Assembly: GCA_951406725.2 (NCBI GenBank) | Contig: OX597822.1 | Coordinates: forward strand, 72,478,001-72,542,000 | Length of the DNA stretch: 64,000 nt | Origin: Octopus vulgaris | Lineage: Eukaryota | Direction of reading: 5' to 3' | Part shown: positions 7,750 through 56,706 of the stretch, piece by piece | Layout of the letters: every line of letters begins with the position of its first letter | Position numbering within the stretch: position 1 is the stretch's first letter | Notes under the pieces: model-generated | Database searches by the model: none | What the model was told of the DNA's origin: nothing | The model's input: only the letters and a program-made list of their open reading frames with translations | Position numbers and translations under genes: made by a program

Positions 7750-9043
7750 GGGGGACGTTCAATAAGTAATGCCCCTGACACACTTGCAGTTGTTTGATCT
7801 AGCTGAAATTTTGCATGTGCAATTATTTATATCTCCATAGATTAAGTGGCAAATTACAGTTCTGAACTAATTGTGTTTTCTGATTTACAGGTGTTTGAAC
7901 TGAGTCAAGTGTGAAATGGAGCCTGTTGAGTGTCGAGCAGTGATCCGGTTTTTGTATTTGAAAGGACGCACACCACGGGAGACTTTTGATGAAATGAAAG
8001 TAACTTATGGTGATGATGCCCCATCACATGACCTTGTAAAACGCTGGCATCATGAATTCAAACATGGTCGGAACTCTGTGGAAACAGCTCCTAGATCTGG
8101 TCACCCCCACCTTCTGCCATTGATGAGGCATCTGTCCGTCAGGTTGAGGCTGCCATTCTGGAAGATCGACGCATAACTATTCGCCAAATAGCCCATGAGG
8201 TCAAGATTAGTACCGAGTCTGTGGAAACTATCATTCATGACCATTTGCATATGCAAAAGGTGTCTGCCAGATGGATTCCCAGGTTGCTCACACCTTTCCA
8301 GAAGCAAGAACGCGTCGATTGCTCGAGGATGAATTTGGAGATGTGCCAATAAGATGAATCAAAATTTTTCAAAAGACTGATTACACAGGATGAAACCTGA
8401 GTCAATCACTATGATCCAGAGACCAAAGCCCAATCAATGCAGTGGAAGCACCCTGACTCACCTCCTCCAAAGAAGGCAAGAGTGCAGCCCTCCGCTGGCA
8501 AGGACATGCTCACAGTCTTCTGGGATCAGGACGGTGTAGTGATGACAGATTTCCTGGCAAAGGGTACCGCAATTACAGGAGCCTATTATGCTTCACTTTT
8601 GAGGAAATTAAGAGAAACTATCAAAATAAAGAGGCGGGGCAAGATCAGCAAAGGCATCCTCCTCCTGCCGGACAACGCTCCGGTTCACAACTCGGGTGTC
8701 GCAAGATCAGAAGCACAGGCGTGCGGCTATGAACTCCTCCACCATCCCCCCAACTCTCCTGACCTTGCACCCTCTGATTTTCACCTCTTCCCAGTCATGA
8801 AGTTGTTTTTGAAAGGAAAGCGCTTCCCAGATGATGCAGCCTTGATTTCTGAAGTTACGTCGTGGTTGGAGGACCAAGCTGGGGTCTTCTACAAAAACGG
8901 TCTCCAGAGCTGCATCAAACGATGGGACAAATGCGTAACTCTGGGTGGTTCCTATGTAAAAAAAAACTAATAACTGTGCCAAGTTTCGTTGCTCTACTGC
9001 TATGGGAAGTGGGCCAGAGGCATTACTTATTGAACGCCCCTCG
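7749..9043 (+). mobile_element. Full-length mariner (DD34D) DNA transposon, inactive
   Basis: About 1.3 kb; TIRs CGGGGGACGTTCAATAAGTAATGCC / GGCATTACTTATTGAACGCCCCTCG; TA at right end (CA at left); inserted in a (TA)n tract. Confidence 0.95.
7916..8970 (+). pseudogene. Mariner transposase pseudogene
   Basis: MEPVECRAVIRFL N-terminus, WIPRLL (WVPHEL-like), [28 protein letters not shown]; frameshift near 8105 and two in-frame stops near 8349 and 8398. Confidence 0.93.
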
Positions 9044-11079: not shown

Positions 11080-11839
11080 TAAATACAAATAGATTTAACC
11101 CTTTCTGTAAGCTTACAAGAAATTAATTTGCACGCAAAAAAACAAAAAATAATTTTAACCGTTCATCAAATATTTTATACAATTTAATTCCTAACATTAG
11201 TAAATTCATATCACCACTATCTTCAAAGGAACCTTCGTTTAGTTCATTGCTGTAATGCAACTCTCCGTAATCGTGGCTTCTCAGAGAAATTAAAATTACT
11301 ACCTAAATCTAATATTCTAAAGTGTAAAAAAGGCAGAGGAGTCTATTCATTCATGTTTTTGTTATAAAAAAGCAATACATATCTAAATTGTTAGAACTCT
11401 AAAGAGTTTCTTACTTTAATTTCCTCTCACATCACAGCAAATAACAATGTCCACGAAATGTTTATCGAAAATTGGATTAAGTTTAGCTGTCCGTCCCGTA
11501 AAAACGCTTTTTATGTTCCATTAGTAATTACAATGTTAAATTACTTTGTAATACAAGTAGTTTCTTCCCATTTTACAAATACTTGTAAATGTACATAATC
11601 GTAATAGTTGTCAGTTTGATGATAATTATCCAATCAATACGTCAACATGTCTACCTCGCGCCTACAAGCTCATAATACCGTTATATTTTCGGATTTTCAA
11701 GGCCTTTAGATTGAGAGTACAAGATTGCCCATGAACGAGACACCAATCTGTTCCAAAGTGAACACCCTGTACCAAATGATATTCATTTTAAAATGCGTGT
11801 ACTGAAGTAACGTTAAATGAAATGCTTTGTCAAGACCTA

Positions 11840-13128
11840 ACCATTGTGAGAACAAACATCTTAACAACACAGCCTCTATCTCTGATTCCCAACACGGCTT
11901 CGAGCCGAAGAGATCATGCTTGACCAGCTTACTGGTAATGGAAGAAATTGTGACGCGTATCCTGGATGATGGTGATGCTGTTGACATCGTTTTATTGGAC
12001 TTTGCCAAAGCTTTTGACTCGGTAAAACACCGCCTATTACTTGTCAAGCTTCAAGCATATAGTTTCCATCCAGATATTGTACGATGGGTTGGTGCCTTCC
12101 TCTCAGATCGCTACTTCCAAGTCCAAGTTAATGGTTCACTGTCCGACGTCTCCAGTGCGAGCAGTGGCGTGCCTCAAGGTTCAGTGCTTAGGCTCTTATT
12201 GTTCTTAGTCTTCATAAATGACTTGCCCGACGACCTCACGCAAAAACCTTTCTATTTGCCGATGATGTCAAACTGGTCGCTCCTCGCGGTGATATAGATG
12301 ATCTTCGTCGATGCCTCCACCAATTTTGGAGATGGTCTAACGAATGGGATCTGTGTCTGAACGTGTCAAAGTGTAGTTATCTGCCTATTGGCTCTTCTCC
12401 TGCAACTCAACTTGATTTCGAGCCGGGTCGTCTGCTTCTGGAGAGGACCGACCAGGTAAAGGACCTGGGTATCTTGGTGGATTCTTCCTTTTCACCTTCG
12501 GCCCAGTGCGTCCATGCTGCCAACAAAGCACGCAGAGTTCTGTTTTTGATTTGACGGTCATTCGGAATGCTCACAGCAGCCATATTCCTACCTCTCTATG
12601 TCACGCTGGTGAGACCCATATTGGAGTACGGGATTCAAGCCTCTTCTCCTTATCTCCTCAAAGACATACATCATCTTGAAAGAGTCCAGAAGCTGGCTAC
12701 CCGCATGGTTCTTGGTCTCAAGCATTTGTCTTATGAAGAAAGGCTGAAGTCGCTTGACCTTTATTCTCTAGAAAAACGACGACGACGTGGTGATCTCATT
12801 CTTGCTCACAACATCATAAGAGGAAAGTGTAACCTCTCGAAAGAGCTGTTCTTCACTCCTGCTCCAGAGTGTCGGCTACGGGGTCACTTCGAAAAGCTCT
12901 ATCTGCGACGATTTCATCTCAATCGAAGGAGAGGTCCGGGTTGCGGATCCGTGGAATAAGCTGCCGGCCGAGATAGTGAAGATGCCGACGACTGCTCTGT
13001 TCAAAGTCTCTCTTGACCAGAAATGGCCTGAACTCTTTGCATGAACACCACCCTGTACATAACTCCATGTTCCCCTACATGGCCTTGCTTTTTGCTTTTT
13101 GAGCCAAAAAATTAACTTAACTTAACTA
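11840..13128 (+). mobile_element. 5'-truncated CR1/L2-group LINE (RT and C-terminus, 3' UTR, short tandem tail)
   Basis: QHGF..RSCLTSLL, DIVLLDFAKAFDSV, SGVPQGSVL, (F)ADD across a frameshift, KDLGILVD, LVRPILEYG, LERVQKLATR, RRRGDLI; tail (TTAAC)n. Confidence 0.92.
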
Positions 13129-42650: not shown

Positions 42651-42907
42651 TATACATTATTTACATTATTTACATTTGACGGATATTTGTCCTCCTTTTC
42701 TTTATTGTTAATACAACGTTTCGGCTGATATGCCCTCCAGGTGTCTTGGAGAAATTTCGAACCTGGGTTCTCATTCCTAAGGTATTTTCGATGTTATTAT
42801 TATTATTATTATTATTATTCAGGTCACTGCTTGGAATCGAACTCAGAATCTTGGGGTTAGTATCCCGCGATCTTAACCACTACGCCATATCCCCGTGAGC
42901 ATATAGC
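42651..42907 (-). mobile_element. tRNA-headed, hammerhead-type element, copy 1 (hammerhead core deleted)
   Basis: Colinear with 56300-56610; keeps CAGCC-GAAA-CG-TT but lacks CTGATGA. Confidence 0.8.
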
Positions 42908-46631: not shown

Positions 46632-46750
46632 GCTTACTGCCATATCACGTTGAAAGCACCGGTTCTCGTCTGATCATCGAAGTTAAGCAACGTCGAGGCT
46701 AATTAGTACTTAGATGGGTGACCGCTTGAGAAACCTAGGTGCTGTAAGCG
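46632..46750 (+). rRNA. 5S rRNA gene copy (probably a dispersed pseudogene)
   Basis: GCTTACTGCCATATCACGTTGAAAGCACCGGTTCTCGTCTGATCATCGAAGTTAAGCAACG...TTAGTACTTAGATGGGTGACCGCTTGAGAA...GTGCTGTAAGC: full-length 119-nt metazoan 5S with GCTTAC/GTAAGC terminal helix; no T4 terminator; isolated. Confidence 0.92.
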
Positions 46751-55786: not shown

Positions 55787-55934
55787 GTTCACAGATCGAC
55801 CTATACTCATTAATGTTTAACATTAGAATAAATATTAGAAATGTTGTATGGACGATTTCTCCGATTTCATTCCATAGCTTGGAGCGTGATACAGAAACTA
55901 TGGAGATACAGTTGCATACATATATAGCTTTTTT

Positions 55935-56060
55935 CTGTCGAGGTCGACTTTTCTTTTCATCCTTTCGGGGTCGACAAATTACGTACCAGTTGCATACTGG
56001 GGTCGATATAATCAACTGGCCCCCTCCCTCACAATTTCGGGCATTGTGCCTAGAGTAAAA
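55935..56060 (+). mobile_element. SINE A 3' half
   Basis: CGAGGTCGACTTT...CATCCTTTCGGGGTCGA...TTGTGCCTAGAGTA. Confidence 0.8.
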
Positions 56061-56299
56061 AAGTATAAATATATAGCTTTTACTAGAATAGCTATTTTGT
56101 ATTATTCAAATGCAAGAATCTACTGATATATCTCATGAGAGTTTTATAGTTCCTATCACACCAGAGAGATTGTTTAAATACAAGGGTAACCACGTTTAAT
56201 TAATAAACATTTCAACGACTTAGAGACAGGAAATTAAAAATCTAGCATTAGTAAGATGTGTAGAAGCGACTAACCCGTTTTAGATGGAATAAGATCTGC

Positions 56300-56450
56300 A
56301 TTGTTTATATTTGACGGATATTTGTCCTCATCTTGTTTGTTGTTAACACAACGTTTCGGCTGATATAACCTCCTGCTTCATCAGGTGTCTTGGGGAAATT
56401 TCGAACCCGGGTTCTCATTCAAAGGTATTTTTCGGTGTTGTTATTATTAC

Positions 56451-56484
<34 letters not shown>

Positions 56485-56500
56485 GTTATTATTATTATTA

Positions 56501-56539
<39 letters not shown>

Positions 56540-56706
56540 TCACTGCCTGGAATCGAACTCGGAACCTTGGGGTTAGTAGCCCGCGCTCTTAACCACTACG
56601 CCATATGTCCACGGGCATATGGAGTAGTGGTTAAGAAAAAACAAGATGAGAACAAATATCCGTCAAATGTAAATAATGTACATAATTCCTCATCTCTTAA
56701 ATATAG
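56300..56706 (-). mobile_element. tRNA-headed element with hammerhead ribozyme, copy 2, plus inverted partial duplication
   Basis: Minus strand: tRNA-like head 56538-56610 (TGGCGTAGTGG, GTTCGATTC), (AAT)n, hammerhead, tail; 56612-56706 is an inverted head start fused to an inverted tail. Confidence 0.85.
56345..56390 (-). ncRNA. Type I hammerhead ribozyme motif
   Basis: AGACAC-CTGATGA-AGCAGGAGGTTATATCAGCC-GAAA-CG-TT-GTGTT; stem I GACAC/GTGTT; GUU triplet; stem II 5' strand mutated. Confidence 0.75.

Follow-up and report, generated by a model that had tools for sequence, protein, structure and literature searches.

The closest described relatives of the octopus repeat analysed here are Penelope/Poseidon-type Penelope-like elements (PLEs) with minimal hammerhead ribozymes (min-HHRs) in their pseudo-LTRs. 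As described in PMC4209133, PMC8557442 and PMC2377424, these elements encode a reverse transcriptase (RT) with a C-terminal GIY-YIG-type domain and no Zn-finger linker, their pseudo-LTR doubles as the 3' UTR, their copies carry inverted 5'-truncated arms with a 30-40-nt extension on one end, and most hammerhead motifs lie in solo truncated copies. Inverted arms and a one-sided extension are given as the PLE insertion signature (PMC8557442). The min-HHR is characterized by an extra base after A9, G10.1-C11.1 and a palindromic 15.2-16.2, and is reported not to cleave as a monomer and to cleave at a low level as a dimer (PMC4209133). The sole dissected Penelope promoter, that of Drosophila, is Pol II-type with an intron (PMC2377424). 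LTR-type TRIMs are known to have small-RNA promoters within their terminal repeats; examples are Cassandra, Helenus and Ajax (TRIMp3; PMC10886601), non-autonomous LTR elements moved by Gypsy/Copia that carry a small-RNA-derived Pol III promoter. Short non-coding units with type I hammerheads are represented by SM-alpha and Sj-alpha (PMC6765202) and by animal non-LTR retrozymes (PMC7229834; 10.64898/2026.07.22.740005); these form tandem arrays with mostly canonical hammerheads for which self-cleavage is shown. SM-alpha appears to be Pol III-transcribed (PMC6765202), and retrozymes have been proposed to derive from PLE pseudo-LTRs (PMC7229834; 10.64898/2026.07.22.740005).

The octopus element shares the RT, pseudo-LTR and insertion traits listed above and the details of the min-HHR, probably also the GIY-YIG-type C-terminus without a Zn-finger linker, and adds an A/B-box head and an (AAT)n tract inside the pseudo-LTR. 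It also differs in that its 5' ends pile up at the head edge, in the lack of a conserved sense-strand TTTT, and in its candidate promoter, which is unlike the Pol II-type one of Drosophila. The segment resembles Cassandra, Helenus and Ajax in placing a small-RNA-derived promoter within a terminal repeat, but it lies in the pseudo-LTR of a protein-coding PLE beside a hammerhead. With SM-alpha and the retrozymes it shares a short unit with a type I hammerhead, whereas in octopus the copies lie scattered, singly or in head-to-head pairs, the hammerhead is of the minimal type and part of the coding sequence, and the head is found in the parent PLE as well. Compared by description only, the octopus tRNA-derived SINEs (Ohshima & Okada 1994, via PMC10886601, PMC4758252) are similar in their tRNA-derived heads; OR2 has been classed as a CORE SINE, but the PLE head is not followed by a CORE-like body. 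The repeat was recognized in a window of 64,000 nt of Octopus vulgaris DNA (GCA_951406725.2, contig OX597822.1, positions 72,478,001 to 72,542,000), and the following features are numbered from its first nucleotide.

56300..56706, minus strand: minimal hammerhead-tailed repeat, window copy
56536..56610, minus strand: tRNA-derived head, with A box 56603-56593 and B box 56558-56549, a candidate Pol III internal promoter
56437..56535, minus strand: (AAT)n spacer, 33 units
56300..56418, minus strand: N-terminal coding segment of the PLE ORF, with its ATG at 56418-56416, frameshifted in the window copy
56345..56389, minus strand: minimal type I hammerhead motif, helix II broken in the window copy
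56611-56612: palindrome centre
56613..56636, plus strand: inverted head 5' end (fold-back arm), 24 nt, 92% complementary to 56587-56610
56630..56683, plus strand: inverted tail-end copy, an inverted-arm remnant, 54 nt, 87% complementary to 56294-56347
56686..56705, plus strand: PLE extension (~35 nt), where the element body begins behind the pseudo-LTR, carried by the inverted arm alone
42651..42907, minus strand: second, more decayed copy, with a decayed fold-back, head 42890-42820, (AAT)9, and tail 42795-42665 without the CUGAUGA core

A preliminary description had read this locus as a chimeric SINE in which a minus-strand tRNA-like head with A and B boxes is followed by an (AAT)n spacer and a hammerhead tail. 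Both boxes were located, the spacer was counted, and the fold-back claimed for the head 5' end is present as 24-bp arms, decayed in the second copy. That copy is colinear as stated, with head, spacer and tail all in place, except for the lost hammerhead core. The fold-back of the window copy is strongly stable as RNA (z = -6.7; 0/200 shuffles equally stable). The 54-nt inverted tail copy and the extension had been overlooked; they show that the window copy is a palindrome of two head-to-head arms, one of which has lost its middle at a short GTTAA microhomology read from the sequence.

The head is tRNA-like rather than a tRNA, since a good copy scores only 10.8 bits (E 9.7) against RF00005 and ARAGORN called 0 tRNAs in the window. 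Rfam likewise gave no tRNA or hammerhead match in the window, 5S rRNA alone exceeding its gathering score. Among 24 genomic tRNAs (7 anticodons), the head is nearest to Arg-TCT (score 65 vs 57 for the next), which is not decisive as Thr, Ala, Cys and Arg-TCG tRNAs score close to it. Weak similarity over short stretches (E 0.006-3) was found to other SINE heads of the same genome. The A and B boxes are kept at 95.5% and 96.6% of non-CpG positions in 77 arms, against 92.9% for the rest of the head, a weak difference. The head is likely to work as a Pol III promoter inside the pseudo-LTR.

The hammerhead consists of a 5-bp helix I, CUGAUGA plus an extra A, helix II and GAAA-CG-UU, with no helix III loop, and is called by its match to the published min-HHR description (PMC4209133). 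Rfam hammerhead models had no match to the window at E<=10. The ribozyme motif reported earlier is present at 56389-56345, but a 1-nt deletion and a substitution have left helix II with 1-2 bp, compared with 6 bp in a typical copy, and have shifted the reading frame. Across the examined family loci the core is intact in 79/111 ungapped arms. Self-cleavage of a solo copy is unlikely, because min-HHRs need a dimer and inverted pairs place their motifs on opposite strands. As the ATG of the ORF sits in the tail, the minimal hammerhead is dual-coding, serving also as protein-coding sequence.

The repeat belongs to a dispersed family, as had been proposed from two copies. Searching the genome with the tail yielded 2209 candidates, and forty fixed 10-kb stretches contained 2 loci, corresponding to ~5 per Mb with a wide error. 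Exact 24-mers numbered 5937 for the hammerhead and 3293 for the head (reversed controls, 0), which by rough calibration represent ~26,000 hammerhead arms and ~15,000 head arms. Head and tail form one unit: the tail is present in 29/30 head loci, the 30th running into >500 AAT units, and the head in 24/29 tail loci, which does not agree with the two occurring mostly apart. The tract between them varies from a few units to >500. At L121 it extends from position 1576 to the end of the locus and has grown to at least 502 AAT-type units; in this way the element would seed long microsatellites. Foreign elements lie within the tract at L002, L011, L120 and L150, and elements that target AAT may use it as an insertion site; the insert at L011 appears similar to a Dong/R4 3' end.

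The same sequence was found upstream of the head in four family loci (L128, L132, L022 and L106), and in three of these it translated as a PLE C-terminus. A search with this C-terminal peptide gave 3025 candidates. Of 30 loci selected by the ORF end, 28 have the head after the stop codon and 26 have the tail; stop codon and head are usually separated by ~32 nt, which contain a hairpin. The order in the parent is stop codon, 32 nt with the hairpin, head, (AAT)n, ATG, minimal hammerhead, and extension with the ORF body. One copy (L173) has a 569-aa open frame with an RVT_1 match (E 2.7e-6) and 2989 homologues. This frame is 40% identical end to end with P0069, which has both RVT_1 and GIY-YIG; L173 itself had no direct Pfam GIY-YIG match, and the GIY-YIG match of P0069 (E 1.6e-5) covers the aligned region. 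A PDB sequence search returned 0 matches. No Zn-finger linker between RT and endonuclease is visible in the parent translation, unlike in the 781-aa PLE family described below. On its translations, the parent appears to be a Penelope/Poseidon-type retroelement with an RT and a GIY-YIG-type C-terminus.

The other end of the ORF was read from the near full-length L184, the one copy in which tail end, extension and ORF body form a continuous reading frame. The frame is open from the ATG through the tail in 8/8 other translatable copies, and 2/10 lack the exact start motif. The closest full-length homologue, P0003, is identical at 12/20 N-terminal positions (E 9e-6, pairwise), and an N-terminal TPD..PKR motif was found in only 1/26 long homologues. 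The in-frame continuation in L184, together with the ATG frame through the hammerhead, identifies the tail as both pseudo-LTR and ORF start. Head, (AAT)n and hammerhead tail together are almost certainly the terminus (pseudo-LTR) of this PLE. This bears out the proposal that the repeat is moved by Penelope machinery and not by a LINE, the head following a PLE ORF in 28/30 loci. A comparison of the tail with the pseudo-LTR of an autonomous PLE had also been suggested; the tail is indeed a PLE terminus, although not a standard one. The A/B-box head was absent from 8 distant relatives in metagenome contigs (34-42% identity), of which only 4 span the ORF end, with short flanks.

A young PLE family obtained in a hunt with Pfam GIY-YIG was tried as the partner and rejected, the tail lying downstream in 0/30 loci and a different 3' end in 12 extended loci. 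This family (L101-L105 and L110, for example G000:C16:20834500-20842500) has many intact 781-aa ORFs in copies that are 93-98% identical, and a likely Zn-finger linker (Neptune-like). Tandem CCAAT/CRE-like repeats lie in its 3' UTR beside a (TA)n flank, together with a hammerhead-like motif, recognized by eye, with a U3-A8 core variant.

Insertions of the octopus element have the PLE signature. Inverted head-to-head pairs were found in 38/87 loci, and the extension is on one arm in 35 of these pairs, on both arms in 0 and on neither in 3. Head-to-tail tandem arrays are not the rule; solos and head-to-head pairs dominate, with occasional partial tandems (for example, L029). Short copies exceed ORF-linked copies ~4-5 to 1. 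Divergence is equal in the two groups (6.0% vs 6.0%), and 0/250 alignment columns are diagnostic between short and ORF-linked copies after correction, so both come from one source and not from a separate SINE lineage. The tRNA-related head with A and B boxes is a SINE2 trait; the remaining organization is not that of a SINE2, because the partner is a PLE instead of a LINE, (AAT)n is internal where a SINE2 has a 3' simple-repeat tail, the ends are PLE-type, and the head belongs to an autonomous element and not to an independent non-autonomous lineage. Head-to-head palindromes make up about half of the short loci; within transcripts these would form long dsRNA and could be ADAR substrates (cf. 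PMC5625713).

About 75-80% of full heads end at the head 5' edge, where a loss of ~14% is expected. In exact 24-mers, the head has 3293 occurrences and the ORF end, 78 nt upstream, has 813, so that retention across the head edge is 0.25 (0.21 after rough calibration), compared with 0.86 expected from 5' loss further upstream. This drop is not overstated, because the ORF-end pattern is matched more often per copy (13/30 vs 6/30). Upstream continuation was seen in 1/21 full-head arms of tail-selected loci and in 3/29 head-selected loci. The perfect fold-back junction (437 by exact 23-mer, some counted on both strands) is about as frequent as the native junction (452). Ends between -7 and ~+8 are likewise seen in copies that have no inverted head at this point (for example, L015, L016, L025, L121 and L135). 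The native hairpin upstream of the head has z -0.5 in the copy folded, and its pairing ends at -7, the same base as the pile-up wall.

The sense strand over ~2.6 kb has no TTTT site common to more than 3 copies (worst 3/29), with 15 private TTTT runs across the 38,125 bases aligned; for the first ~700 nt of the body, this alignment contains no more than 1-2 copies. L184 has 0 TTTT in 2625 nt vs 5.8 expected, and 0/300 base shuffles are as low. With dinucleotides kept, the deficit is modest: 3.5 are expected in L184 (P 0.033), and P is 0.18 for the majority state, 0.05 for L176 and 0.11 for L181. A control PLE ORF has 9 TTTT in 2343 nt and 8/8 distant relatives carry 2-9; the unrelated PLE fragment of L106 has 0 in 555 nt, and L173 has 3 private T4 runs. 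The pile-up and the TTTT lack fit Pol III transcription from the head, and a hairpin-driven reverse-transcriptase stop fits the pile-up too.

Two raw RNA-seq runs were chosen by species label, and ~6% of each was read and aligned to the ORF-linked copy L156. The 11,146 and 8,470 reads obtained are equal in both directions, behaving as unstranded, and 79-82% run on into unlike sequence. No pile-up of starts, ends or cleavage sites was seen on L156 in these standard libraries, which are blind to short Pol III RNA and to self-cleavage.

We favour, with a probability of roughly 0.55, a reading in which the short copies would arise by Pol III read-out from the head, with the protein encoded by the element copying the RNA. 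The rules used here for Pol III starts and TTTT stops are the canonical ones. Transcription would start ~6 nt upstream of the head, at a pyrimidine-purine step, read through the T4-free head-AAT-hammerhead tail of the 3' pseudo-LTR and stop at the first flanking TTTT. The RT/GIY-YIG protein would recognize the shared 3' end and copy the short RNA; the cDNA 3' end, GCCC-NN-GGGC, would then fold back and prime the inverted arm, and the arms of the palindrome would later decay by microhomology deletions, as in the window copy. In partial tandems, the promoter and start codon for the full ORF would come from the upstream pseudo-LTR, and hammerhead activity would be confined to dimers within tandem transcripts, solo and inverted copies being inactive. 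A broader version is less likely: in it, the PLE would have taken over a Pol III promoter from a captured tRNA-type segment, and Pol III would transcribe all 2.6 kb of the T4-free element from the upstream pseudo-LTR and a built-in SINE from the 3' pseudo-LTR. The whole-element RNA would in that case be an uncapped message with its ATG after the AAT tract and the hammerhead as its first codons.

The same 5' ends could instead come from a Pol II transcript of the full-length PLE, with cDNA fold-back at the native hairpin making the wall at the head edge. This is a tentative second choice, since fold-back on a full-length Pol II RNA predicts the same wall from the end of hairpin pairing at -7. 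The native hairpin is present in ORF-linked copies, and its 2-nt bulge coincides with the starting point of the perfect palindromes; in age and alleles, short copies cannot be told from ORF-linked ones, the RNA-seq mirrors the copy profile without a start pile-up (a weak test), and the Drosophila Penelope pseudo-LTR promoter is TATA-less and Pol II-type (PMC2377424). The hairpin is weak, however, copies without an inverted head end at the same place, and the lack of sense-strand TTTT is left unexplained. An independent SINE, that is, a tRNA head with a PLE tail that spreads, in the manner of SM-alpha or a non-LTR retrozyme, from separate master copies, would account for the excess of short copies, the A and B boxes and the absence of T4 within the unit. 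It is improbable given that the head is part of the autonomous element, that no diagnostic columns or difference in divergence set the short copies apart, and that these are dispersed solos or inverted pairs with a minimal hammerhead not of the canonical SM-alpha/retrozyme type. The chimeric SINE and the analogy with Schistosoma SM-alpha put forward in the preliminary description were accordingly abandoned. The elements found inside (AAT)n at four loci might suggest that PLE tails nested by chance or targeting in an unrelated SINE, locus by locus; this is hardly credible and was ruled out by the linkage of head and tail and by the same junctions in the ORF-linked element, and inversions and truncations span the head-AAT-tail junctions.

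In the literature searched, neither the present family nor any tRNA-type promoter within a PLE pseudo-LTR was found described; repeat databases were outside this search, and the family may well be deposited there as Penelope or SINE. SINEs are taken to be LINE-dependent. A PLE terminus with a tRNA-type promoter would show how PLE-dependent SINEs can arise directly from a parent that is still readable, and if whole-element reading by Pol III were true, a PLE-dependent SINE would have been caught at birth. If the Pol III part fails, what remains is an ordinary family of PLEs in which truncation has a hot spot. The family makes two matters testable: the origin of PLE inverted arms, for which one fixed fold-back site has served hundreds of times, and the ability of Pol III to make a long protein-coding retroelement RNA. 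With some 15,000 loci, of which about half are palindromic, it would also be a source of (AAT)n microsatellites and possibly of dsRNA.

Other repeats were noted in the window. Another abundant SINE-like repeat lies at ~55930-56080, ~220 nt downstream of the window copy. A 5S rRNA match (98.2 bits) at 46632-46750, plus strand, has a SINE head within ~10 nt in place of a T-run terminator, and probably represents a 5S pseudogene or a 5S-SINE junction. The plus-strand frames at 8401-8970 and 11821-12959 presumably correspond to a mariner transposase fragment and LINE RT fragments.
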